A DNA stretch of 64,000 bases, from NCBI GenBank assembly GCA_001897155.1, contig MKSF01000006.1, positions 94,696 through 158,695 on the forward strand, written 5' to 3'. Under the pieces are notes generated by a model. That model had not been told where the DNA came from. It searched no databases and saw nothing but the letters and a program-made list of their open reading frames with translations. The number at the start of each line of letters is the position of its first letter. Within the stretch, counting starts at the first letter, position 1. The position numbers and the translations under genes are program-made. This DNA comes from Bacteroidetes bacterium 47-18 (GTDB lineage Bacteria > Bacteroidota > Bacteroidia > Chitinophagales > Chitinophagaceae). Of the stretch, positions 4,354-62,103 are shown one piece after another.

Positions 4354-4416
4354 CCGGTCAAACATTAAAAGTCCGTTTGAATATCTATAATCGGTTTCAA
4401 CAAACACAAATAAACT

Positions 4417-5085
4417 ATGATACTCATCAAAAACATACTTATTGCCTTAGTGATACTTTCCTTTTGGGGATGTAAAGAAAATACCGGTACCGGCAATAAA
4501 GCCTCTGATCAACAAGAGGACACCATCCTTATAAAAAAACAAACAGAACTGACCGGTTATGCCAAATCATATTATATAAGGTCTTACAGTTATTCCTGGA
4601 TCGCAGCTAAAGATACGATAGACCTAAGGTTTAATGTTTCAGAACATATCCGGGATAGCAGCGTTTCAATTTCAGTATGGCATACCAATCCTATATCATT
4701 TACCGTTATGCTACATCAATTTACCAGGCTATTGCCAGAGATAGAGAAGGATTTCAGCGTGGCAAAAATCAGCTCTTTATACTTTAAACCGCCTATATAT
4801 TATCCCGAACTCGCCACCAGCCTTTCAAAAGAATACGAGCAAAAATTCGGCAGGAAAAATATATCCTTTCAACAGCAAAAAGAATTTCTTTTGACATCAT
4901 CCCTCAATACACAGCTTAACAAATATCTAAATCAATTCGGTAAAAAAGCGGCAAGCTATAGTATTGAAAAGTTTCACCTGGCAGAGAAAGAACACTATAG
5001 TTTACCTGATACAACAGATTTGACAAATTATCCGGAATTTTCAATTCACGGGCACGGCATAAGTGTGCTCCTGACCACGCTTTAA
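4417..5085 (+). CDS. Hypothetical lipoprotein (AT-rich gene)
   Basis: Signal peptide with lipobox-like LSFWGC. No recognisable domain. Low GC relative to flanks. Confidence 0.45.
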   Translation: MILIKNILIALVILSFWGCKENTGTGNKASDQQEDTILIKKQTELTGYAKSYYIRSYSYSWIAAKDTIDLRFNVSEHIRDSSVSISVWHTNPISFTVMLHQFTRLLPEIEKDFSVAKISSLYFKPPIYYPELATSLSKEYEQKFGRKNISFQQQKEFLLTSSLNTQLNKYLNQFGKKAASYSIEKFHLAEKEHYSLPDTTDLTNYPEFSIHGHGISVLLTTL

Positions 5086-5478
5086 AAACTGCCTTACAGC
5101 AGGAGATACATTATTACTGCAACAAAAGAAAGGAGTTAAGAGCTAACTGAAGGCTTCGTTTGCTGTCAAAATCCCCGGTTGGTAAAGAACATCAACAAAG
5201 GACTATCAAATAAATACTAAAACAGCTTCCAGTCAATTAAAAGAGAAGGTGGAATGTTCCAAAAACACATTTTGCTCCCGGACAGGAATGATAGGATATA
5301 TATAACATATACCAGTCAGGAAACACATTTAAAACGCTGACTTACATAATAATAAAGTATGACTGCCGTTAATAAGCTATGTGGCAGACGTCGTTAAGGC
5401 CAGGTTCAATTATGGCGCTTCTGTTTCCGCCGGCCCGAGCAAGCACCTTTATTATCAATCATTTTAATTTAAAGCAGT

Positions 5479-6177
5479 ATGAAATTCAGAATAATTATGG
5501 TCCTGTCAGTTTTGAGCTATGTGCAGTCATCAGCACAAAAGAACACCATAGAAGCCGGGGTGGGAGGATATAAATTTTCAAGCGTAATAATGCAGCAAAA
5601 TGCTATTTTTAATGCCTTTAGTGTTAGCTATTCAAGAAAGATCGAAGAAAGATTTCACCTGCATACACAATATACAAGAGCGCCTTTGAGCGGTTCATTA
5701 TCAGCAGTCAGGAACCTATCAATGTCCAGGCAATCCGTAGGAAAACTAACAACCCATTATGAGTTTAATTATTTTGACATAGGAGGGAAATATCAATTAT
5801 ATAAAATTAAAAGCCATGATTTTTCAATAACAGGGGCTTTATCCTTAGCTCATGGCAGGAATGAATATCTTACTCACGTTGTCTGGTCAGAGCCTGAGCC
5901 CGGTGAACCATACGGTCATCCTTTTCACGCAAATTACGCAACCAAAAAGGAGACCTATTTCGGGGCGCTTGCCGGATTGAGATATGATTACAGATTCTGG
6001 AACAACAGGATTAATATTGGTCTTTATCTTTCTGCCAGATGTTATTTTGGCAAAAAGAATGCAAAGTTAGAAAACCCCTATCCCGGCACGCAAGTTCCGG
6101 ACCCCAATATTCCCGGAGGCCGTCATAGCTTTCCTTTCCAGGGGAATCATGGCATACACATCGGATATAATTTTTAA
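5479..6177 (+). CDS. Hypothetical outer-membrane beta-barrel protein
   Basis: N-terminal signal peptide (VLSVLSYVQSSAQ). Alternating hydrophobic pattern. C-terminal ...IGYNF with terminal Phe. Confidence 0.45.
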   Translation: MKFRIIMVLSVLSYVQSSAQKNTIEAGVGGYKFSSVIMQQNAIFNAFSVSYSRKIEERFHLHTQYTRAPLSGSLSAVRNLSMSRQSVGKLTTHYEFNYFDIGGKYQLYKIKSHDFSITGALSLAHGRNEYLTHVVWSEPEPGEPYGHPFHANYATKKETYFGALAGLRYDYRFWNNRINIGLYLSARCYFGKKNAKLENPYPGTQVPDPNIPGGRHSFPFQGNHGIHIGYNF

Positions 6178-6189
6178 TTAAACACCTTA

Positions 6190-6815
6190 TGCTATACTCC
6201 GGTCGGAATGACCTTTACTATTAATGGATTAACCCCACCGCTGTCATTTCGAGCCTAATGCAATGGAGCCGGGAAATCTCTGTTATGGTGGATTGGAATA
6301 CTCATTAGACGACCGCATTAACTTTTATGCTTCCATAGGCTCTCTTTCTCCTGCCAGGCTGAACCCGTTGAAGCCATTATAAACCACATTTCGACAAGCT
6401 CAATGTGACAGTCTCCCTTATTGTCATGCTGAGCCCGTCGAAGCATATACTGCTTCCCTTACGCTGCGCTCCGGTCGGAATGACCTTTAGGATTAACCCC
6501 GCCGCTGTCATTTCGAGCGTAATGCAATGGAGCCGAGAAATCTCTGTTATGCTGGATTGGAACACTCATTAGACGACCGCATTAACTTTTATGCTTCCAT
6601 AGGCTCTCTTTCTGCTGCCAGGCTGAGCCCGTCGAAGCCTTTTGGTTAAGCAGGTCATCGACACTTTCCGTTAGGTCCACACTTCGACAAGCTCAGTGTG
6701 ACAAGCGTGTTTTCCTCCTAAGTGTCATGCTGAGCCCGTCGAAGCCTTTTGGTTAAGCAGGTCATCAACACTTTCCGTTAGGTCCACACTTCGATAAGCT
6801 CTGTGTGACAAACAA
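6190..6815. repeat. Structured repeat array A: 2 copies of a ~175-bp composite element (left arm CGCTGCGCTCCGGTCGGAATGACC ... TGTCATTTCGAGC..AATGCAATGGAGCCG.GAAATCTC) plus several ~65-bp hairpin modules (CACATTTCGACAAGCTCAATGTGACA ... TGTCATGCTGAGCCCGTCGAAGC)
   Basis: Direct sequence comparison. 6198-6395 and 6468-6650 are >90% identical. The flanking hairpin arms are mutual reverse complements. No ORF support. Confidence 0.7.
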
Positions 6816-6979
6816 TCTCGGACTGAGCCACATCAAAGCATCTTGATTAAATTGGCTGCGCTTTGGTTTGTCATAATGCAGAACTTAACTTTGTATTTCA
6901 AAAGTACCTTCTATGGTCTACACGAACCGGTAGCCGCGAGGGAAAATATTAATCCAATAAATATCCAAGCTTTTCAGAT

Positions 6980-7636
6980 ATGCATGAGCTCATCAGAATA
7001 CTTTTTTTAGTCTTATTGACTTCCTGCGCCGGCAACCAGGGGCGTACACCAGTCTTGCCAATATTTGGCGAAATAAAAGTAAATCCCGTAATCCATAACG
7101 GGAAACAAAGCATAGATACAGTGTACCACACTATTGGTCCGTTTGCTTTCCTGAACCAGTTCAATGATACGGTCGATGACAATACATTAAAGCATAAGGT
7201 ATTTATAATCAGTTGTTTTCATTCCACATTTCAGACTAAAACAGATACCTTACTGGAAGTAACGCTGGATAGTGTCCATCGTATACTGGGTAACGAGCCT
7301 GATTTCTATATTATTTCCCAAACCATCGACCCGGCATTTGATACTCCTGACATCTTACGTAAGTATTGTGAAAATAAAAACATCACAGGGAAAAACCGGT
7401 ACTATCTGACAGGACAAAGCGCTGACAGTATTTACAGGTTTTTAAGGTATAAGTATTTCCTCCTTGCAGAACGGGATACTACCAATATGGAAAACGGCGG
7501 GTTCATTCATTCCGATAAAATAGTGCTCATTGACAGGCAACAAAGGATCAGGGGTTATTATGACGGTACAGATATAAAGCATGTAGGCCAGCTCATCAAC
7601 GATGCAAAGACCTTACTGCAGGGGGATACTTTATAA
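6980..7636 (+). CDS. Hypothetical lipoprotein
   Basis: Signal peptide plus lipobox (LLTSCAGN). Sandwiched between repeat arrays A and B. AT-rich. Confidence 0.45.
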   Translation: MHELIRILFLVLLTSCAGNQGRTPVLPIFGEIKVNPVIHNGKQSIDTVYHTIGPFAFLNQFNDTVDDNTLKHKVFIISCFHSTFQTKTDTLLEVTLDSVHRILGNEPDFYIISQTIDPAFDTPDILRKYCENKNITGKNRYYLTGQSADSIYRFLRYKYFLLAERDTTNMENGGFIHSDKIVLIDRQQRIRGYYDGTDIKHVGQLINDAKTLLQGDTL

Positions 7637-7719
7637 TATTCAAATCTACCCACAATACATGCTACGGCTGCCACCAAAAGCTGATAAAGCATACTTACAC
7701 AACACGGCCACTTCTCGCT

Positions 7720-7912
7720 GCCCGGCTGAGCCTGCCGGGATTATTAAAGATCACACTTCGACAAGCTCTGTGTGACAAACAACCCTGGCGTCAGGCTAAG
7801 CCTGTCGAAGCCTTTTGGTCAGGCAGGTTATTGAAACTTTACAACAGGTCCACACTTCCAACACGCTCTGTGTGACTAACAACCCTGGTGTCAGGCTGAG
7901 CCTGTCGAAGCC
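7720..7912. repeat. Structured repeat array B: two ~65-bp hairpin modules (CACACTTCGACAAGCTCTGTGTGACAAACAACCCTGG.GTCAGGCTGAGCCTGTCGAAGCC)
   Basis: Two near-identical copies with palindromic arms. Same module family as arrays A and C. Confidence 0.6.
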
Positions 7913-8102
7913 CTTATACCGCTGATGGAGCAATGCAGACATCCATCCCCCTGGCAATACACATTTCTTTGTCTGCATAAGCCGTTAAAATTTCCCTTTT
8001 TCATCTAATTTTGGTGCAAAACTGAAGTTGTGGCTTTCTTATCCATCACTATCTAAAAGTCGCAAACCGTTAGCAGCAATACTTCTCAAAAGCACGATCT
8101 AA

Positions 8103-9203
8103 ATGGAAGACAATTTAAAGTCGTTTGAAAAACAAATAAAGAAAACTCACAAATTTGGATTCACTCCAAAATATGAAGCTAAATTCCACACGCATCTTAC
8201 CGAAAAGGCTTTTATTCCAATTGCCCAACAGGCTTTTGAAAAATTAAACTGGGAAATAGTATATATTGACGAAACTAAAGTTGAAGCTAAACGAGGTACG
8301 GAAAACTGGGGGTTTCCCGGTTATACATATACCGAACTTATACAAGTAACATTTGAATATGGAAACGTTAAGGTATATAGCGAATCTATAAAAAGCTCCT
8401 TTTGGGATAATGGAATGAATTCTAAAAGAGTGCAGCTTTTTATCTTGGTATTTCAGCAAATTGAAAGCTCTTACGACAACGATTCTATAAAAAAATTAGA
8501 GATCGAGCAGGAGAAAAAAAACAACTGGGATAATTATGAAATTCCGGCAGCATTGCCCTTACCTGAAAAAGTAAGAAAACCTTTGTTTTTTATTCCAATT
8601 TTGGGAATGACTATATTGTCAATTGTATTAGGACTTATTCTGGCTAAAATTTCTATTCACGGGAAATACGTAATTTTTCTTTTTGAAATTTTAGTTGCTA
8701 TAATCTTAACCTTTGTACTTAAATATTTAATTAAGCTCTCTAATTATACTAATTTCAATAATCTGTTTTACCTGCTGCTTGCATCAATATTTGTTACCTA
8801 TTTTTCCAGTCAATATATACAATATGAACTCATTTTAAGAGAAAATGATTTGGATAGAATAGGCTTTGCCGCATATTTAAAAATCAGGCTAGAATATGGG
8901 TTAACAATAAAAACCTTAAAAACAGGCTGGATCGGGCTGATTATCAGTTGGATATTGCAACTGGGGTTCACTTCCCTTATTGGATATATAAGATTAGCAA
9001 GAATTACAATTGTATACCAGATCAAGCGGGTGCCACCGGAGGTGTCCGACTTTGCCTATTATCATTTTCTGAAAGGGAAAGATGAGTATGAGGTTAGAAA
9101 TCAATTGGCAAAATTCGGCTGGATAGAAGAACAACACCAAAACGAGGTTTTTGAATCATTAGGAGCCCACCAGGATGCCGTTGAAATGAATCGCTCAGCA
9201 TAA
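8103..9203 (+). CDS. Hypothetical integral membrane protein (very AT-rich gene)
   Basis: 366 aa. Soluble N-terminal ~160 aa, then multiple hydrophobic helices (FFIPILGMTILSIVLGLILA, VIFLFEILVAIILTFVL, ...). No recognisable family. Confidence 0.45.
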   Translation: MEDNLKSFEKQIKKTHKFGFTPKYEAKFHTHLTEKAFIPIAQQAFEKLNWEIVYIDETKVEAKRGTENWGFPGYTYTELIQVTFEYGNVKVYSESIKSSFWDNGMNSKRVQLFILVFQQIESSYDNDSIKKLEIEQEKKNNWDNYEIPAALPLPEKVRKPLFFIPILGMTILSIVLGLILAKISIHGKYVIFLFEILVAIILTFVLKYLIKLSNYTNFNNLFYLLLASIFVTYFSSQYIQYELILRENDLDRIGFAAYLKIRLEYGLTIKTLKTGWIGLIISWILQLGFTSLIGYIRLARITIVYQIKRVPPEVSDFAYYHFLKGKDEYEVRNQLAKFGWIEEQHQNEVFESLGAHQDAVEMNRSA

Positions 9204-9360
9204 TTCTGATAATCAGGCTGTCGCTATTGATGTCCTGCGCTCTCCCTGCCAGTTATCCTTAACTATCCAATATTTTATACACCGTCTTTTTTCCCTAATT
9301 TAGCGGATCGACACCCTGTAACAGGGGTATATATTTATATCAGCCATAAAAAACATTTCC

Positions 9361-13576: not shown

Positions 13577-14380
13577 TCACCGGAAAAGCGCCTCCGTATA
13601 ATGCAGGTTATCCCTGTCGCCTACCGCTCCGTGACCGGGGATCACCACCTTCACATAAGGGTACCTGGTAAGAAGCCGGCTGATGCTGGCAGGCCAGCGC
13701 AACGTATCAGCATCCGAAAGGTTGCCTTTATCCGCACCGGCAGCTTTTACCAGGCAGCCGCCAAAGAGCACGCTGTCCGATTCCAGGTAACCTGTTGTAT
13801 TATCAGCAGTATGACCGGGTCCCGGGTAATATAGTTCTATCTTATGACCATTGACAGAAAGCGATGCTATAGTGTCAAAAGAGATCTGCGGCACTTCTGT
13901 TCTGTTGGCCTCTGCCAAGTCTAATGTCTGCCGCTGCGCATAGGAAGGGATGTTCCTTGTATGGAACTGGGACAACCCGGCCAGGCAGTCGTCATGAAAA
14001 TGGGTGACCACCACGGCTTTGATACAGATACCCGAACTGTCCAGCAAAGCGAGCAGCAAGGCCGTGGCCAGGGAGTCGGCAGGGGTATCAAATATAACAG
14101 CCGTATCAGCGTCCAGTATAATCCAGCCGTTACAGTCCACTTTACCAAATTGTTGTGTGGAGAGATAGGACGTATGGAGATACGTATGAGCGCTCAGGGG
14201 ACTGACACTCAATACCGTATCTTTATATTGCAAGGTGGTTTTGCCAGGCTCCGAAGGTGCGGATGTTGGTGTGGTCTGCCCACAGCCCGCAGCGGCCAGG
14301 ATACAGATAGCTGCAACGAACAGCCACAGGCTTTGCAGAAGGGTTGTATTTTTCATATGTGCAAATTCTGTTATTTTCAC
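13577..14380 (-). CDS. Subclass B1 metallo-beta-lactamase, predicted lipoprotein
   Basis: Aligns motif-by-motif with BcII/B1 enzymes. VVVTHFHDDC matches the HxHxD motif. YYPGPGHTADN matches the H196 motif. LFGGCLVK matches C221. VIPGHGAVGD matches H263. Signal peptide with AAGCGQ lipobox. Confidence 0.75.
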   Translation of the reverse strand: MKITEFAHMKNTTLLQSLWLFVAAICILAAAGCGQTTPTSAPSEPGKTTLQYKDTVLSVSPLSAHTYLHTSYLSTQQFGKVDCNGWIILDADTAVIFDTPADSLATALLLALLDSSGICIKAVVVTHFHDDCLAGLSQFHTRNIPSYAQRQTLDLAEANRTEVPQISFDTIASLSVNGHKIELYYPGPGHTADNTTGYLESDSVLFGGCLVKAAGADKGNLSDADTLRWPASISRLLTRYPYVKVVIPGHGAVGDRDNLHYTEALFR

Positions 14381-14404
14381 GTACGATCGTGTTAATTCTT
14401 ATAA

Positions 14405-16065
14405 AAAATACCCTTCGACAGGCTCAGGGTGACACCTTCTCTTTATTGTCAGGCTGAGCCCCGTCGAAGCCCTTGTATAAACCACATTTCGACAAGCTCA
14501 ATGTGACACAACAGGCTCAATGTGACATCGATATTCTTGTCATGCTGAGCCTGTCGAAGCATACCTATATATTACGCCTGTTTTTAGAAAGGTCCGGTAA
14601 CTTATACCACTCATTACGGATGATAGCCTCTTTCTTTTTCCGACTCCATCCCTTCACCTGCTTCTCAAAAGCAATGGCTTGATTCACATCAGTGAACTGT
14701 TGTTGGAAAACAAGTATTACCGGGCGTCTTTTGAATGTATAGCATTTGGGATCGGTACCCTCATTATGCTCAGCAATTCTCTTTTCCAGGTTATTCGTAA
14801 TTCCGGTGTAATAGGAGTTATCAGCACATTGAACAATGTATACATAGTAATATTTCATGGTATTATAAAGTTAAGGGTTCAATTTTGTTATCAGGTAAAT
14901 CCCGGCGATTAGTGTCCATGTCAGGCTGAGGTCTGCTGAAACGTTGTAAACCACATTTCGACAGGCTCAATGTGACACAATGAACTGCATGTAACAATCA
15001 CCATCATTGTAAGGTTGTGCTTGTCGAAGCAGGATTGTGGTGGTGGGTGGACACACACCACGGATGATTACCCTTCGACAGGCTCAGGGTAACACTTATT
15101 CTTTGTTTGTAAGGCCGAGCACTGTCGAAGCCCTTATATAAACCACATTTCGACAAGCTCAATGTGACACAACAGGCTCAAGGTGACATCGCTATTCTTG
15201 TCCTGCTGAGCCTGTCGAAGCATATACTTCTTTCCTTACACTGCACTTCTTTCGGAATAACTTTTTGCTACTTAATGGATTATACGTCCTGCTGTCATTT
15301 CGAGCGGAATGCAATGAAGCATAGAAATCCCTGTTGGAGTGGATGGTATAGCATATTCACCCTTCGACAGGATCAAGGTTACACTTACTCTTTGTTGTCG
15401 GGTTGAACACCGTTGAAGCCCTTGCGACAAGCTCAATGTGACACAACAGGCTCAAGGTGACAATCATTATCATTGTCATGCTGAGCCTGTCGAAGCATAT
15501 AACTTCTTTCCTTACACTGCGCTTCCTGCAGAATGACTTTTGCTACGTCCTGCTGTCATTTCGGGCGGAATGCAATGAAGCCTAGAAATCCCTGTTGGGG
15601 TGGATGGTATAGCATATTCACCCTTCGGCAGGCTCAGGGTGACACTTATTCTTTGTTTGTCAGGCTGAGCACAGTCGAAGCCCTTGTATAAACCACATTT
15701 CGGCAAGCTCAGGGTGACACCTACTCTTTGTTGTTAGGCTGCCTCCATTAAAGCCCTTTTATAAACCACATTTCGACAAGCTCAATGTGACACAACAGGC
15801 TCAAGGTGACATCGCTATTCTTGTCATGCTGAGCCTGTCGAAGCATATCACCTTACCCTTCGACAGGCTCAGGGTGACACTTATTCTTTGTTTGTCAGGC
15901 TGAGCACTGCCGAAGCCCTTGTATAAACCACATTTCGACAAGCTCAACGTGACACAACAGGCTCAATGTGACATCGATATTCTTGTCATGCTGAGCCTGT
16001 CGAAGCATATAATCTTACCCTTCGGCAAACTCAGGGTGACACAACAAAGTTCAATGCGACAAATA
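14405..16065. repeat. Structured repeat array C (~1.7 kb): about 20 hairpin modules (CTTCGACAGGCTCAGGGTGACA / TGTCATGCTGAGCCTGTCGAAGC family) and 2 composite TGTCATTTCGAGCGGAATGCAATGAAGC.TAGAAATCCC elements. A GIY-YIG gene is embedded in it.
   Basis: Dense tandem or interleaved copies visible by eye. Arms are reverse complements. Spurious short ORFs only. Confidence 0.75.
14565..14858 (-). CDS. GIY-YIG nuclease family protein (small, ~97 aa, UPF0213/YhbQ-like)
   Basis: MKYYYVYIVQCADNSYYTGITNNLEKRIAEHNEG...FEKQVKGWSRKKK matches the GIY-(10-11)-YIG..R..EH..E core. AT-rich gene embedded in repeat array C. Confidence 0.75.
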   Translation of the reverse strand: MKYYYVYIVQCADNSYYTGITNNLEKRIAEHNEGTDPKCYTFKRRPVILVFQQQFTDVNQAIAFEKQVKGWSRKKKEAIIRNEWYKLPDLSKNRRNI

Positions 16066-16106
16066 GCCAAAAAGCCCCTGCTCTGCGAGCAGGGGCTTTT
16101 TTTTAT
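16066..16106. terminator. Bidirectional rho-independent terminator (serves the ABC-F gene on the minus strand)
   Basis: A-run, then GCCCCTGCT-ctgcg-AGCAGGGGC, then T8. Confidence 0.65.
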
Positions 16107-16120
16107 CCATCAGGAAGGTA

Positions 16121-17740
16121 TTATTTATACATTTCTTCCCTTAATGCCTGTATCTTGGGATCCGTGATATATTCATCAAAAGGCATTTCACGATCTATAA
16201 GTCCGTTCGGTGTCAGCTCCAGCACCCGGTCTGAAACGGTCTGTGTCAGCTCATGGTCCCTGGAAGTAAAGATGATCGTACCGCGGAAATCCTTCATACC
16301 GTTGTTGAGGGCGGTAATGGATTCCAGGTCCAGGTGGTTGGTCGGCTCATCGAAGGTCAGCACATTACCTCGCTGCATCATCATCCGGGAGAGCATACAG
16401 CGTACTTTCTCCCCTCCGGACAATACCGTACATTTTTTCTGGGTTTCCTCACCGGAGAACAGCATTTTACCCAGGAAACCGCGGATAAATGTTTCGTCCT
16501 TTTCCTCGGAGTACTGACGCAGCCAGTCCACCAGGTTCAGGTCCTTACCTTCAAAATAAGCCGAATTGTCGGCAGGCAGGTAGGTTGGCGTAATGGTCAC
16601 ACCCCAGCGGTATTCACCTTCAAAGTCGGTATCTTCCCCGTTGATGATCTTATAGAAAGCGGTCGTTACGAGAGAGCTCGCGCCTAAAACGGTCACTTTC
16701 TGCCCGCGCTTCAGATCAAAATTGATGTTCTTAAAGGCCAGTTCACCGTTAATGTATTTGGTCAGCCCTTTTACTTCCAGTATCTGGTCGCCGGCTTCAC
16801 GGGTCTGGTTGTTGAATAAGATGGCAGGGTATTTCCTGTTGGATGGCTTCATATCCTCCACATTGATCTTATCCAGCATTTTCTTCTTGGATGTCGCCTG
16901 CTTGGATTTGGAAGCATTGGCGGAGAAGCGGGCAATGAATTCCTTCAGCTCGGCAATCTTATCTTCCGCTTTCTTATTCTGGTCGGCGCGTTGTTTTAAC
17001 AACAGCTGGCTGGATTCATACCAGAAGCTATAGTTACCCGTAAAAATGTTGATCTTTCCGAAGTCAATATCCGCCACGTGCGTACACACGGTATCCAGGA
17101 AGTGACGGTCGTGCGATACCACCAGGACCACCTTATCATATTCAGACAGGAAATTTTCCAGCCATGAGATGGTGTTCATGTCCAGGTCATTGGTAGGCTC
17201 ATCCAGCAGCAGGATATCCGGGTCCCCGAACAGGGCCTGGGCCAGCAATACCCTTACTTTTTCATTACCATCCAGGTCTTTCACCTTCTGGTAGTGCTTA
17301 TCTTCCTTTACGCCCAGGTTACTCAGCAGTGTAGCGGCATCGCTTTCCGCATTCCAGCCGCCCATTTCCCCGAAAGTACCTTCCAGATCTCCCGCCCTGA
17401 TGCCGTCTTCTTCGGTAAAGTCTTCCTTCGCATACAACGCATCCTTTTCCTGCATAATGCTGTATAGGACATCATTACCCATTATTACGGTTTGCAGGAC
17501 ATCCACCTCATCGTACTGGTGGTGGTTCTGCTTCAGGACGCTCATACGCTGTCCTTTGGATATTTCCACCTTACCCGTGGACGGCTCTATCTCACCGGAC
17601 AGTATTTTCAGGAAAGTGGATTTTCCCGCACCGTTGGCACCAATGATACCATAACAGTTACCTTCCGTAAATTTTATATTTACATCTTCAAATAAAACTC
17701 TTTTACCGTAGCGAAGCGACAGGTTGGATACGTTGATCAT
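16121..17740 (-). CDS. ABC-F family ATPase (tandem ABC ATPase domains, no TMD; EttA/YbiT/Uup-like translation factor)
   Basis: Two Walker A sites (GIIGANGAGKST and a second domain). LSGGE signature. Linker between domains. 539 aa. Confidence 0.85.
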   Translation of the reverse strand: MINVSNLSLRYGKRVLFEDVNIKFTEGNCYGIIGANGAGKSTFLKILSGEIEPSTGKVEISKGQRMSVLKQNHHQYDEVDVLQTVIMGNDVLYSIMQEKDALYAKEDFTEEDGIRAGDLEGTFGEMGGWNAESDAATLLSNLGVKEDKHYQKVKDLDGNEKVRVLLAQALFGDPDILLLDEPTNDLDMNTISWLENFLSEYDKVVLVVSHDRHFLDTVCTHVADIDFGKINIFTGNYSFWYESSQLLLKQRADQNKKAEDKIAELKEFIARFSANASKSKQATSKKKMLDKINVEDMKPSNRKYPAILFNNQTREAGDQILEVKGLTKYINGELAFKNINFDLKRGQKVTVLGASSLVTTAFYKIINGEDTDFEGEYRWGVTITPTYLPADNSAYFEGKDLNLVDWLRQYSEEKDETFIRGFLGKMLFSGEETQKKCTVLSGGEKVRCMLSRMMMQRGNVLTFDEPTNHLDLESITALNNGMKDFRGTIIFTSRDHELTQTVSDRVLELTPNGLIDREMPFDEYITDPKIQALREEMYK

Positions 17741-18100
17741 GCTTGTATAGTTGTTGGAAATATTTTACGCTGCATTGACAGGTCAAAACAGTGCAAAGTG
17801 TTGCTATTTTGTATTTTGATGTGCAAAGTTAATCAAAAAGAAAGGATTTGCCCTTCTCCCGACCTAATTTTTCACTTTCAGGTCTATTTACAGCACTTGA
17901 CTGCCGGAAGCCCGTTTACGGACTGCTTATCTGCCTGCCGGGCAACGGGAAGATAGCCCAGCCTATAAGCTTATAAAGTTCTTCCATGTTCCTCCGTTTC
18001 GCTACACTACAGCCGAAATGCCTCCCGACTGGCAGCGCGGCAAGTACAAAACGTCTTCCCGTTTCCTGCACCCGGACAGGCAAATTTAAAAGCACCTGCT

Positions 18101-18823
18101 TTATTTCATCAGGTCCCTGATCACTACGGAGGCACAGGTGGCCCCGAAGGTAGCAGGCAGGTAGGACATAGTGCCAAAGGCCGATTTCTTAAAGTTGGAG
18201 CCGTCGGTCAGCATCAGCGATTCCCGGATAGGCAGCTCCGGGGAGAAGACAGCTTTCAGGCCTTTTCTTATGCCCAGGCGCCTTAATCTTTTCCTTACCT
18301 GGTGGGCAAGCGGACAGTTGTAGGTTTTACTGATATCCACTACTTTCAGCTGGGTAGGGTCAAGCTTGCCGCCGGCTCCCATAGAGCTTACAATGGGGAT
18401 CTTCCGTTGCAGGGCCGCCTGCAGGAAGGTTATTTTGGGCGTAAAGCTGTCTATACAGTCTGCCAGGTAATCATATTGCGCGGCGTTCAGTATTTCCTCC
18501 ACCTTTTCGGGTGTTACGAATGAGTTGATGACGTGCAGCTTCAGTTCCGGGTTAATGGCTTTCAGGCGTTCCGCCATCAATTCCACCTTTGACTGTCCAT
18601 GCGTGGTAGCCAGGGCAGGCAACTGCCTGTTACGATTGGTAGGGTCCACCACATCGCCGTCCACGATGGTCATCTCTCCTATCCCGCTCCTGCAGATAAA
18701 TTCGGCGCAAAAGGAACCTACGCCGCCCATTCCCACCACCAGCACGTGCTTACGGGTAAGCTGTATGAGTTTTTCTTTACCTGTGATGAGCTCCGTACGG
18801 GACAGCCAGCTTATATCTTCCAT
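18101..18823 (-). CDS. tcdA: tRNA threonylcarbamoyladenosine dehydratase (ThiF/MoeB-family E1-like)
   Basis: VLVVGMGGVGSFCAEFICRSGIGEMTIVDGDVVDPTNRNRQ Rossmann/ThiF motif. 240 aa. Confidence 0.8.
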   Translation of the reverse strand: MEDISWLSRTELITGKEKLIQLTRKHVLVVGMGGVGSFCAEFICRSGIGEMTIVDGDVVDPTNRNRQLPALATTHGQSKVELMAERLKAINPELKLHVINSFVTPEKVEEILNAAQYDYLADCIDSFTPKITFLQAALQRKIPIVSSMGAGGKLDPTQLKVVDISKTYNCPLAHQVRKRLRRLGIRKGLKAVFSPELPIRESLMLTDGSNFKKSAFGTMSYLPATFGATCASVVIRDLMK

Positions 18824-19464
18824 GAAACGTTTATGATTTTAGAGTAGTTTTTTTGAATCTGCAAAATAACGTCATCCGTCTCAATTTTTAAAATCGAGGC
18901 TGCGGTCCTGTAAACCACTTCCACAGGGACAGCATACCGGTCTGTTTCCAGAAAAATGTGTTCGGGGGGAACAGCCTGCAGAATCTCGGAATAGCGGTCG
19001 GAGTGCTGCAGTATGGCAGGACCTATGCTCAGGTAATGGCCGTGCCGGACGATCTGAGCAGCGAGTTCGGGGTGCTTATTGAAGCCATGGAAGATCACAG
19101 GGACCTTACAGTCCTTCAGCAGTTGCAGGCACTCCTGGTAGGCCCTTACACAATGGATGATCACAGGCTTGCGGAAATAAGCGGCCAGCTTTAGCTGCTC
19201 CGAAAAAACTACCAGCTGATCTTCCCAGGGTGTAGCGCAGATCTTATCCAGGCCGCATTCCCCGATAAAAAGCGTATCCGGAAGCGTTTCCAGCAGGGCC
19301 TGCAACTGTGCCAGCTGCCGCTGAGGCTCCGCCGCATACCAGGGATGGATGCCAAGGCTGTAGCGGGCCGGCAGGGCTGCCGCTTCACCGGGCATTACGT
19401 TGTATATATATACCGTATCATCCCCGTAATGCTGGTGGGTATGGATATCAATATATTTCATCAT
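18811..19464 (-). CDS. TatD-family metal-dependent hydrolase/DNase
   Basis: IDIHTHQH N-terminal metal-binding motif and GIHPWY. 217 aa. Confidence 0.7.
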   Translation of the reverse strand: MMKYIDIHTHQHYGDDTVYIYNVMPGEAAALPARYSLGIHPWYAAEPQRQLAQLQALLETLPDTLFIGECGLDKICATPWEDQLVVFSEQLKLAAYFRKPVIIHCVRAYQECLQLLKDCKVPVIFHGFNKHPELAAQIVRHGHYLSIGPAILQHSDRYSEILQAVPPEHIFLETDRYAVPVEVVYRTAASILKIETDDVILQIQKNYSKIINVSWKI

Positions 19465-29040: not shown

Positions 29041-29084
29041 AAGCTGTTGTTTGTTTTTTTACTTTCCAAAAACCGTCTTAATAT

Positions 29085-30935
29085 TCAAGATAACACTTCT
29101 TTTTATAGGATTTAGGAGATTTCTCCATTGCGCTACGCTACAGTCGAAATGACAAGTAATACATCTGGCGTAAGAGCGAATCAGTAACAGACCACCCTAT
29201 GTCATTTCGAGCGAAGTGAAACGGAGTCGGGAAATCTCCTTGCATTTCCAACCAAAAGCTGAAACTTCTGCCTCTACCTAGTCCAGAGACTTTCCATTGC
29301 GCTACGCTACAGTCGAAATGACAAACGGCATGGCTACAGTAAGAAGCGAACCAATAGCACACCTCTTATGTCATTTCGAGCGGAGTGAAACGGAGTCGAG
29401 AAATCTCCTTGCATTTCCAACCAAAAGCTGAAACTTCTGCCTCTACCTAGTCCAGAGACTTTCCATTGCGCTACGCTACAGTCGAAATGACAAGTAGCAT
29501 GTTTAGAGTGAGAAGCGAACCAACAGCCCCCTTATGTCATTTCGAGCGAAGTGAAACGGAGTCGAGAAATCTCCTACATTTCCAACCAAAAGCTGCATCA
29601 CCTGAGCAAGCTAAATACATCATTCATCACTTCATCATTAAAGAATTTCCATTCACTATTCACATTATCAATTAATGTATTCTTCTTGGCTCTGCTCCAT
29701 TTTTTTAGCTGTTTTTCCCTCTCAATAGCAAGTGATATATTTTCAAATACCTCATAATACACCAGCAAAACACAATTGTATCTATCTGAAAAACTATTTA
29801 CAATTAAATGCTGCTCATGTTCATACAATCTTCGTTTCAGATCATTCGTTACCCCTATATACAGAACAGTTTTTGCCTTATTTGTCAATATATATAGAAA
29901 GTATGATTGCATGGTCGAGTTTTTTAATTTACAACCTACCTCTCCTGAATGGTCTTTGAGATTTCTCCATTCCGCTACGCTACAGTCGAAATGACAAGTA
30001 GCATGTTTAGAGTGAGAAGCGAACCAACAGCACACCTCTTATGTCATTTCGAGCGGAGTGAAACGGGGTCGAGAAATCTCCTTGCATTTCCGACCAAACA
30101 CTGACCTTCTGATCTTACCTGGTTTAGAGATTGCCCCATTTCGCTATACTACAGTCGAAATGACAGAGTAACACCTGGGGCAAGAACGAATCAGCAGCAG
30201 ACTCACCCTATGTCATTTCGAGCGGAGTGAAACGGAGTCGAGAAATCTCCTACATTTCCAACCAAAAGCTGAAACTTCTGCCCTATATAGTCCAGAGATT
30301 TCTTCATTCCACTACGCTGCAGTCGAAATGACAGAGTAGCACCTGGGGTAAGAACGAATCCTCACCCTATGTCATTTCGAGCGAAGTGAAACGGAGTCGA
30401 GAAATCACCTTGCATTTCCAACCAAAAGCTGAAACTTCTGCCTCTATCTAGTCCAGAGATTTCTCCATTCCGCTACGCTACAGTCGAAATGACAAGTAGC
30501 ATGTTTAGAGTGAGAAGCGAACCAATAGCCCCCTTATGTCATTTCGAGCGAAGTGAAACGGAGTCGAGAAATCTCTTTGTATTTCCAACCAAACACTGCA
30601 CTTCTAACCTACATAATCTAGAGATTCCTCCATTTCGCTACGCTACAGTCGAAATGACAAGTAGCATGTTTAGAGTGAGAAGCGAACCAATAGTAGCCCC
30701 CTTATGTCATTTCGAGCAAAGTGAAACGGAGTCGAGAAATCTCCTTGCATTTCCAACCAAAAGCTGAAACTTCTGCCTCTATCTAGTCCAGAGATTTCTC
30801 CATTAAGCTACGCTGCAGTCGAAATGACAAATAGTACATTCTGGTGTAAGAACAAATCAGTAGCAGACTCACCCTATGTCATTTCGAGCAAAGTGAAACG
30901 GAGCTGAGAAGTTTATTATTACCTGTGCTTTAAGC
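29085..30935. repeat. Structured repeat array D: about 9 tandem ~168-bp composite units (GGAGATTTCTCCATTGCGCTACGCTACAGTCGAAATGACAAG - ~40 nt variable loop - TTATGTCATTTCGAGCGAAGTGAAACGGAGTCGAGAAATCTCC - linker TTGCATTTCCAACCAAAAGCTGAAACTTCTGCCTCTACCTAGTCCAGAGAC), interrupted by a GIY-YIG gene
   Basis: Core TGTCATTTCGAGC recurs at ~29208, 29369, 29535, 30040, 30210, 30370, 30535, 30705 and 30880. The unit ends (GGAGATTTCTC / GAGAAATCTCC; CAGTCGAAATGACA / TGTCATTTCGAG) are reverse complements, giving a long imperfect hairpin. Confidence 0.8.
29598..29912 (-). CDS. GIY-YIG nuclease family protein (small, ~104 aa)
   Basis: MQSYFLYILTNKAKTVLYIGVTNDLKRRLYEHEQ...REKQLKKWSRAKK has the GIY-YIG core. 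The longer ORF (to 30035) reads through a repeat unit, so the start is set at the Met preceding the domain. AT-rich. Inserted at a repeat-unit boundary. Confidence 0.7.
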   Translation of the reverse strand: MQSYFLYILTNKAKTVLYIGVTNDLKRRLYEHEQHLIVNSFSDRYNCVLLVYYEVFENISLAIEREKQLKKWSRAKKNTLIDNVNSEWKFFNDEVMNDVFSLLR

Positions 30936-61110: not shown

Positions 61111-62103
61111 ATGGAAAAAATTACAGCGGCCATTACTGCGGTTGGAGGCTATGTGCCGGAATATGTCCTTACCAATGAAGAATTAGAAACAATTGTAGAC
61201 ACTACAGACGAATGGATCACCACACGCACCGGCATTAAAGAGAGAAGGATACTGAAAGGAGAGTTCGGAACGTCCCATATGGGCATCAAGGCAGTACAGA
61301 ACCTGATGTCCAAGCACGACCTGGATCCCGCAGATGTGGAATTGCTGATCTGTGCCACAACGACCCCTGATATGCAGTTTCCCGCCACTGCCAATATCAT
61401 TGCCGCCGAATGCGGGTTCACCAACGCTTTTTCCTACGATATCAGCGCAGCCTGCTCCGGGTTTCTCTATGCCCTCACTACTGCCGCCCAGTTCATAGAA
61501 AGCGGCAAGCATAAGAAAGTAATAGTGGTGGGAGGCGATAAAATGAGCTCCATCATAGATTACGAGGACAGGACTACCTGCATCATTTTCGGGGACGGCG
61601 CAGGAGCGGTGTTGCTGGAGCCCAGCACGGACGGCACCGGCATACAGGACAGCATCCTGAAATCCGACGGTAACGGGTGGGTGCACCTGCACCAGAAAGC
61701 GGGCGGCTCCCGCAGGCCGGCTACCATAGAGACCGTATCCAACAAAGAACATTATGTTTACCAGGAAGGCCAGACCGTCTTTAAATTCGCCGTTACAAAT
61801 ATGGCGGATGTATGCGAAAAAATAATGGTCAAAAATAACCTCCGCAGCAACGATATTGCCTGGCTGGTACCGCACCAGGCCAACCTGAGGATCATCTCCG
61901 CTACCGCGGACCGGATGCAGCTGCCGCCGGAAAAGGTCATGATCAATATCCAGAAGTTCGGCAATACCACTTCAGGCACTTTACCGCTCTGCCTGTGGGA
62001 ATGGGAAAAGCAGCTTAAAAAAGGCGATAATATCATCCTGGCAGCGTTCGGAGGAGGCTTTACATGGGGGGCCGTTTATATTAAATGGGCTTATAACAGC
62101 TAA
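61111..62103 (+). CDS. fabH: Beta-ketoacyl-ACP synthase III
   Basis: [41 protein letters not shown]. Active-site Cys region SAACSGF. C-terminal HQANLRI and GNTTSGTLP. Confidence 0.85.

Follow-up and report, generated by a model that had tools for sequence, protein, structure and literature searches.

The window analyzed here, a 64-kb stretch (64,000 nucleotides) of contig MKSF01000006.1 from Bacteroidetes bacterium 47-18, encodes two small GIY-YIG nucleases, GIY-B and GIY-C, each lying within an array of short tagged repeats that we call arms. The named relatives nearest to the source genome are Taibaiella and Edaphocola (Chitinophagaceae). We propose that the GIY-B locus is probably an Ssn-type nuclease/hairpin-repeat locus, that is, a small GIY-YIG endonuclease gene inside a tandem array of the motif it recognizes. 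The genes, arrays and arms concerned are as follows.

14565-14858, minus strand: GIY-B, gene for a 97-aa single-domain GIY-YIG nuclease of an Ssn-like/UPF0213-like clade
14405-16065: array B, a mosaic of tandem hairpin units around GIY-B, with at least 18 well-formed arms (14410-16041), degenerate arms and two composite elements
14538-14562, minus strand: canonical downstream arm, reading ATGCT.TCGACAGGCTC.AGCAT GACA on the gene strand, 3 nt past the GIY-B stop codon
14953-14977, plus strand: nearest well-formed upstream arm, 95 nt ahead of the GIY-B ATG, its TGTC tag facing away from the gene
29598-29912, minus strand: GIY-C, gene for a 104-aa GIY-YIG nuclease (Pfam, E = 8.5e-18)
29080-30920: array C, with 13 arms (stem ATTTC/GAAAT, 22-nt loops), the nearest of which bracket GIY-C as TGTC..-gene-..GACA
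6200-7915: array A, lacking a nuclease gene and divided by a SCO1/SenC gene (6980-7636) into two parts, 6200-6830 and 7700-7915, with both arm types on each side

GIY-B matches the Pfam GIY-YIG domain (PF01541, E = 1.3e-20, residues 3-76 covered) and no NCBIfam model. Together with a motif-based arm scan, this bears out an earlier sequence-only reading of the same DNA, which had described a 97-aa GIY-YIG protein at 14565-14858 inside a 1.7-kb hairpin array. The same reading put the identity of the two nucleases at about 35%, and the measured value is 36% over 88 aa. It also held both genes to be more AT-rich than those of the host, in agreement with GC contents of 38.8% for GIY-B and 30.8% for GIY-C, compared with 48.2% for the window and 48-52% for adjoining genes. 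A tblastn search of the window for a third GIY-YIG copy returned GIY-B and GIY-C only; a weak match at 61771-62022 is a FabH-type synthase.

Arm anatomy was determined from 80 loci encoding GIY-B relatives (63-74% identity) in Chryseobacterium, Elizabethkingia, Mucilaginibacter, Dyadobacter, Algoriphagus and other genera. The repeat unit is a single 25-nt arm, or half hairpin, and not the ~65-nt hairpin, which consists of two inverted arms; hairpins in turn are strung into arrays. On one strand the arm reads 5'-[A/G]NNNT TCGA-N4-CTC AN'N'N'T GACA-3', and comprises a 5-bp stem, free in sequence but self-complementary, together with a conserved loop of 11 nt and the constant tag GACA/TGTC. The tag is invariant in the arm alignment, which shows neither a target-site duplication nor conserved flanking sequence outside the tag. 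At the three central positions of the stem the bases vary by locus while complementarity is kept (GGC/GCC, TCC/GGA, CCC/GGG, TGG/CCA, TGC/GCA and CAC/GTG).

The case for the stem rests on covariation. As a guard against circularity, arms for this analysis were chosen by loop and tag alone, and 325 of the 342 arms so chosen form at least four of the five stem pairs. Among 140 distinct arms, 95.5% of cells are paired (66.7% in shuffles), and double changes number 79, 69 and 28 at three stem pairs. The covariation score is 0.736 as opposed to 0.200 in shuffled data (0/500 shuffles), and slid controls, in which the partner column is displaced, do not exceed 0.095. Stems usually differ between the paired arms of a hairpin, and the long hairpin is mismatched exactly there; this difference argues for selection on the stem-loop within each arm. 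Two further patterns were observed in the alignment. The outermost stem position (columns 4 and 24) pairs A with T in 83 arms and sets G against T in 47 of 140, a wobble that arises only on the strand ending in GACA. Loop columns 13 and 16 also covary (C..G in 93 arms, G..C in 39 arms) at a spacing too short for hairpin pairing; two lineages may lie behind this, or a contact that the protein reads.

Arms and nuclease genes are tightly associated across the Bacteroidota. An arm lies within 150 bp of the open reading frame (ORF) in 77 of the 80 GIY-B-related loci, all from other Bacteroidota, and arm density falls from 6.8 arms/kb at 0-150 bp to 1.7 at 150-500 bp, 0.26 at 0.5-1 kb, 0.09 at 1-2 kb and 0 at 3-4 kb, with an approximately 75-fold drop reached at 1-2 kb. 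Arms and gene usually follow the order TGTC-arm, gene, arm-GACA, and 54/80 loci have a downstream arm no more than 60 nt from the stop codon, in some cases overlapping it. The SsnA-like clade, to which GIY-C belongs, was sampled with 80 metagenomic loci by a loop-agnostic search for YGTC followed by a perfect 5-bp stem. Such stem-loops occur at 5.9/kb within 150 bp of the gene and about 0.8/kb beyond 500 bp (0.5/kb in shuffled sequence). Outward-facing tags are favored about 2:1 in these loci, and also over all 160.

Similar arms were seen beyond these samples. SsnA-like genes of the cyanobacterium Nostoc and of Niabella are flanked by arms of similar design (stems ATTGC/GCAAT and ATGCT/AGCAT, tag TGTC or CGTC), and the large-loop design is therefore not confined to the source genome. 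In the Patescibacteria assembly GCA_031082005.1 (1284-4256 of the extracted locus), an SsnA-like gene with arms on both sides stands between genes for a LexA-type repressor and a DinB-like translesion polymerase, in what looks like an SOS-type neighborhood.

Arm type follows nuclease type. In a neighbor-joining tree, arm loop type follows protein clade: Chryseobacterium has two paralogue clades and two loop types, the murC-adjacent syntenic clade carrying TCGACAAGCTC and the other TCGAGARCCTC, and a clade that spans Algoriphagus, Flavobacterium, Pseudopedobacter and Dyadobacter has TCGACTYCGCTC loops. Within genera, the mean protein distance is 0.176 between loci of the same loop class and 0.284 between loci of different classes (0/2000 permutations). 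The two nuclease clades also differ in arm rules. C follows the palindrome in 175/197 arms of the SsnA-like clade compared with 25/143 of the GIY-B clade, the first two stem bases are AT in 172/197 and 60/143, and the fifth stem base is C in 130/197 of the former and T in 127/143 of the latter. Loops run GAG...CGA in about 122/143 GIY-B-clade arms and are more varied in the SsnA-like clade (GAG start in 108/197); they measure 11-12 nt in the GIY-B clade and either 11-12 or 18-22 nt in the SsnA-like clade. GIY-B-clade arms carry the tag TGTC in 134/143 cases and CGTC in 9/143, and their first stem base is A in nearly all. The sequence-only reading had drawn a parallel with the cognate pairs of RAYT and REP, proposed to test whether GIY-YIG clade and repeat subtype co-diverge, and argued for a functional association of nuclease and repeat rather than chance. 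The co-divergence, the clade-matched arm rules and the proximity of arm and gene support this interpretation.

The locus turns over rapidly between close relatives. Assembly GCA_037189325.1 encodes an ABC-F protein 98% identical to the one beside array B and is colinear with window positions 2703-27878 at 88-94% nucleotide identity. Homology ends at window position 14407 and restarts at 16119, and the 1711 bp between them (14408-16118) are replaced by 499 bp holding three units of the other arm type and one degenerate arm. The GIY-YIG gene and the B-type arms are absent from this 499-bp spacer; a housekeeping YhbQ orthologue kept at this locus in all relatives, the deflating explanation considered at the outset, does not fit that absence. 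Array A differs as well: its left part is gone from the relative, where 152 bp replace window positions 4358-6859 (ORFs 4417-5085 and 5479-6177), and its right part has one arm where the window has three. Elsewhere in the same colinear stretch, window positions 7832-9231 (ORF 8103-9203) have no counterpart, and the relative carries a different 478-aa gene there (17531-18967 of its extracted locus).

In other lineages, seven 117-bp units separate two Chryseobacterium loci of about 90% identity, a single genomic context is common to 17 loci from three Weeksellaceae genera, and 26 Mucilaginibacter loci occupy many contexts, most of them found at no other locus. Long vertical persistence in some lineages thus stands beside turnover in others. 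A second nuclease copy within a few kilobases was found at one of 160 loci.

Within the window, the scan located 40 arms, all in the three arrays (6386-7913, 14410-16041 and 29119-30912), and each array is placed between genes of the same transcription direction. With up to 3 mismatches allowed, the 21-mer quoted in the sequence-only reading has 23 copies in the window (0.01 expected); the composite motif of that reading has four (0 expected). That reading assigned the GIY-B and GIY-C arrays to the same module families, which holds in part: the general arm design is common to both and two arms like those at 29 kb occur in the 14-kb array (15293 and 15554), but CTTCGACAGGCTC-type arms are not present in the 29-kb array. 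Array B contains repeat families D1-D8 and inverted pairs, with tandem periods of 73 and 162 nt (Tandem Repeats Finder). Its individual features and those close to GIY-B are given below.

14410-14472: hairpin unit, with an arm of stem ACCCT/AGGGT, a 12-nt spacer and an inverted arm of stem GGGCT/AGCCT, so that the two stems differ
14484-14562: second type of hairpin unit, its 5' arm duplicated internally (ACAGGCTCAATGTGACA twice); fold -12.3 kcal/mol, z = -2.2
14862-14891, minus strand: promoter-like site, ATAACA-18-TATAAT, a 10/12 consensus match directly upstream of the GIY-B start (pattern match only)
14919-14942: degenerate arm upstream of GIY-B, a copy in repeat family D5
15068-15237: reference copy of a 170-nt super-unit of two hairpin units (family D1, period 162 nt)
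15283-15396, plus strand: composite element (family D4), which includes a 29-kb-type arm, TGTC ATTTC ...GAAAT CCC, at 15293-15331
16069-16101, minus strand: intrinsic-terminator-like hairpin of the ABC-F gene, a 15-bp stem followed by a T run, at the array edge and outside the repeat family

Folded as DNA, the full hairpin at 14410-14472 reaches -16.7 kcal/mol (z = -5.3), and internal loops form where the bases are stem-specific. Further copies of the super-unit start at 14407, 15618, 15691 and 15853 (65-92% identity). The composite element has a second copy at 15544-15657 (93% identity) and is 73% similar to the units that occupy the corresponding spacer in the close relative. The putative GIY-B promoter falls within a 60-nt unique stretch. 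Two minus-strand genes identified by Pfam flank the locus, one for a metallo-beta-lactamase-fold protein (13577-14380) and one for an ABC-F ATPase (16121-17740). A CRISPR-like array was ruled out, as the units alternate in orientation, have no unique spacers and contain arms that differ among themselves; an integron attC-like array was also dropped, there being no integrase present and a different tag.

A model for such a locus exists in Neisseria. N. meningitidis SsnA is a 94-aa single-domain GIY-YIG protein (CDD cd10448) that binds the NTS hairpin repeat (CGTCATTCCCGCGMAVGCGGGAATCYRG) solely as single-stranded DNA and cuts it a few bases 5' of its CGTC tag, on the strand that starts with CGTC (Chenal et al., Nat Commun 2025; PMC11893778). 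Homologues of ssnA from many phyla have at least one flanking motif in 71% of cases and motifs on both sides in 42%, and four SsnA homologues preferred their own motifs (PMC11893778). The published Ssn definition comprises a single domain of fewer than 150 aa, a blastp match to N. meningitidis SsnA at E < 1e-10 with at least 75% query cover, and cd10448 (GIY-YIG_unchar_3) as top CDD hit, and related motifs are described by the pattern HGTCWYN(0-2)YYVSBRHN(0-5)WNVSBRGN(0-2)RNCYNB (PMC11893778). Our SsnA reference was the 94-aa N. gonorrhoeae orthologue rather than the meningococcal sequence (1489-1773 of the locus extracted from NZ_CP119140.1, a 2.17-Mb chromosome filed as a plasmid in PLSDB); it contains Y6, Y17 and E64, and an NTS directly follows its stop codon.

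Both window proteins are of Ssn size and single-domain build, and the catalytic residues expected of the family are present in each: Y7, Y17 and E65 of GIY-B and Y7, Y18 and E66 of GIY-C align with Y6, Y17 and E64 of SsnA. GIY-C shares 49% identity with gonococcal SsnA (E = 5e-28), within the blastp threshold, and on this similarity is clearly a member of the Ssn family. The best PDB matches of GIY-B are EF2693 (1ywl, E = 7.7e-14) and BH0048 (1zg2, E = 3.6e-13); in pairwise comparison it is 40-42% identical to these two (E = 2e-19) and 32.5% identical to E. coli YhbQ, which places it within the range of the UPF0213/YhbQ proteins by similarity. Its locus is of another kind than the stable, repeat-free housekeeping locus of that family, with the gene absent from the close relative and arms in 77/80 related loci. 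A hidden Markov model (HMM) of the GIY-B clade gives 45-65 bits for UPF0213 proteins, 41 for gonococcal SsnA and a median of 70 for GIY-C-clade sequences; the GIY-C-clade model gives 29-35, 109 and, for GIY-B-clade sequences, a median of 79. By HMM score the GIY-B clade thus appears nearer to the GIY-C clade (70-79 bits) than to UPF0213 (45-65 bits), and it is best placed as a divergent sister clade between the Ssn family and UPF0213/YhbQ.

The likeliest mechanism, which we consider probable, is one in which the GIY-B protein would bind the folded arm while the DNA is single-stranded, for example during replication, repair or the entry of conjugative or transforming DNA, and would then nick the DNA beside the TGTC tag, each nuclease clade reading its own arm type. 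The biochemistry of SsnA (PMC11893778), together with the identity of GIY-C (49%) and GIY-B (32%) to it, supports a hairpin-guided nuclease. For the GIY-B clade itself, single-strand binding and cleavage, the cut site and any cellular role are predictions by analogy. Several observations weigh against this proposal. The match of GIY-B to gonococcal SsnA (32% identity over 76/94 residues, pairwise E = 5e-9) misses the blastp threshold, and the published motif pattern has no match in the 64-kb window, the 80 GIY-B-clade loci or three GIY-C-clade loci, compared with nine in a 3.2-kb Neisseria locus used as positive control; GIY-B thus fails two parts of the published Ssn definition. It also scores higher against UPF0213 proteins, whose activity is uncharacterized, than against SsnA. 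The arm combines a 5-bp stem with a conserved loop of 11 nt, whereas the NTS has a 9-bp stem and a 3-5-nt loop, and GIY-B arms have no conserved C behind the palindrome, the base that matters most for binding by SsnA (PMC11893778). Tags face away from the gene here (TGTC..gene..GACA; window positions 14538-14977 and 29535-29996) and towards it in N. gonorrhoeae (..GACG, gene, CGTC..; 1200-2100 of the extracted locus), so that one orientation would place the predicted cut sites within the unit and the other beyond it. Finally, a single short stem folded alone reaches -2.3 kcal/mol, no better than shuffled sequence; such thermodynamic weakness suggests that the arm stem is read by a protein.

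A rival explanation is a mobile element resembling REPIN/RAYT, which we regard as possible though rather unlikely. The TGTC..-gene-..GACA unit would then be, now or recently, a tiny autonomous element, from which the nuclease would have spread the gene-less hairpins as non-autonomous derivatives; this explanation overlaps with the nuclease/repeat proposal and differs only in taking propagation as the main function. Inverted arms enclose the gene as in an insertion sequence, an array of arms without a gene exists (array A), gene and arms are present or absent between close relatives, and arrays grow by whole units. Both nuclease genes are AT-rich compared with the host, one protein clade with one loop type extends across Algoriphagus, Flavobacterium, Pseudopedobacter and Dyadobacter, and the many, mostly unique contexts of the 26 Mucilaginibacter loci point the same way. 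The Ssn authors raised this idea themselves and likened the NTS-ssnA-NTS layout to insertion sequences and REP/RAYT (PMC11893778). However, arms are tightly clustered at the gene rather than evenly dispersed, the 17 Weeksellaceae loci keep one context across three genera, and no target-site duplication or conserved flank was seen beyond the tag. GIY-YIG enzymes hydrolyze DNA, and we know of no strand-joining or strand-transfer chemistry among them, so that host repair would have to do the copying. We raise only tentatively, as a doubtful conjecture, that the GIY-B clade and its arms may form a self-propagating element of a kind not yet recognized in bacteria. It would consist of a ~350-bp arm-gene-arm unit with gene-less hairpin derivatives, spread by a GIY-YIG single-strand nuclease and host repair instead of a DDE, HUH, serine or tyrosine recombinase, and hairpin-guided single-strand cutting would thus extend beyond the published Ssn clade towards UPF0213/YhbQ.

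A free-standing homing endonuclease, a selfish gene that cuts pre-existing repeats and copies itself into them so that the repeats are its target and not its partner, is very unlikely. It would account for the constant position of the gene between a TGTC-starting and a GACA-ending arm and for its AT-richness, and GIY-C has a weak similarity to group I intron endonucleases (E = 3.5e-4), although at 20.7 bits it is far below the cut-off of 56 of the NCBIfam model, which finds nothing in GIY-B. At 97-104 aa and without a separate DNA-binding domain, however, these proteins are unlike known GIY-YIG homing enzymes (PMC11893778). Second copies within a few kilobases are confined to 1/160 loci, synteny is inherited across genera, and arm types that co-vary with the protein fit co-evolution over opportunistic targeting. 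It is highly improbable that the repeats are RNA elements (terminators, mRNA stabilizers or small RNAs) with the nuclease as a bystander. All three arrays do lie between co-directional genes, full hairpins are stable, and A or G opposite T in the outer stem would give a G-U wobble in RNA (47/140 arms), but arm density peaks at the nuclease gene in 77/80 loci and the arrays are far longer than a terminator needs to be; for the ABC-F gene, a classical terminator of its own stands outside the array. Rfam gave no family at gathering score in the whole window and only chance-level weak matches, at E up to 1, within 14300-16150, and SsnA does not bind RNA (PMC11893778). Chance co-location of an ordinary housekeeping YhbQ-type gene with unrelated intergenic repeats is extremely unlikely. 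Such a gene would agree with the identity of GIY-B to E. coli YhbQ (32.5%) and UPF0213 proteins (40-42%) and with the single locus that the Weeksellaceae gene keeps across genera; against it stand the association in 77/80 loci from many genera with clade-matched arm types, the missing gene at this locus in the close relative, and E. coli yhbQ itself, which lies so close to both yhbP and yhbS that flanking arms would not fit.

To our knowledge, no sequence-specific enzymes other than the Ssn nucleases are restricted to cutting single-stranded DNA. Each nuclease/hairpin pair is a potential tool, to which the GIY-B clade would add a different recognition geometry, a short free stem with a conserved 11-nt loop; natural covariation already indicates which arm positions may vary. 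The placement of this clade between Ssn and the uncharacterized UPF0213/YhbQ proteins also offers a lead to the substrate of the latter. Arrays differ where the flanks of relatives are about 90% identical, and the system may therefore be a driver of intergenic turnover among Bacteroidota. Annotation is affected as well: gene callers often translate arms into spurious small ORFs (such as 14473-14682 and 15164-15406) or into N- or C-terminal extensions such as MFRQAQHDRGCHPERSRRI, and small GIY-YIG nucleases are misnamed 'excinuclease ABC subunit C' in some sources.

Compared with known systems, the locus differs from I-TevI-type GIY-YIG homing endonucleases, which combine the nuclease with a separate DNA-binding domain and usually reside in introns or phages, whereas GIY-B has 97 aa and no extra domain. 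With UPF0213/YhbQ proteins GIY-B shares its size and 40-42% identity (EF2693, BH0048), but E. coli yhbQ has no flanking hairpins, and we know of no repeat association in that family. The REP/REPIN-RAYT systems are alike in their short tagged palindromes, paired into longer hairpins and clustered in arrays, in a single enzyme gene flanked by its own repeats, in mostly vertical inheritance and in cognate enzyme/repeat types. RAYT, however, is an HUH tyrosine (Y1) transposase of the IS200/IS605 kind and the REP tag is GTAG, whereas GIY-B matches GIY-YIG only and the arm tag is TGTC/GACA.

CGTC-tagged REPs, reported in Bacteroidetes among other phyla and including Neisseria dRS3, have a CGTC tag 'changed to TGTC' in many copies and stems that start A-T, and 'apparently lack a dedicated transposase' (Di Nocera et al. 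2013; PMC3733652). The arms described here share this tag and stem start, but have a 5-bp stem and an 11-22-nt loop compared with an 8-9-bp stem and a 4-5-nt loop, and stand beside a gene, an association not reported for those repeats (PMC3733652). A literature search for GIY-YIG proteins with hairpin or palindromic repeats returned nothing relevant besides the Ssn study (PMC11893778). The Ssn/NTS system is alike in its single-domain GIY-YIG protein of about 94-104 aa with conserved catalytic Y, Y and E, in a gene flanked on both sides by oriented, tagged hairpins that are found elsewhere in the genome too, in nuclease/repeat pairs that co-vary, in the YGTC tag and in a stem that begins with A; long tandem arrays right at the gene set the GIY-B locus apart. 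We conclude that the principle of a hairpin-guided nuclease with its own repeat is the one published in 2025 (PMC11893778), and that GIY-B represents a divergent clade with a differently built hairpin.

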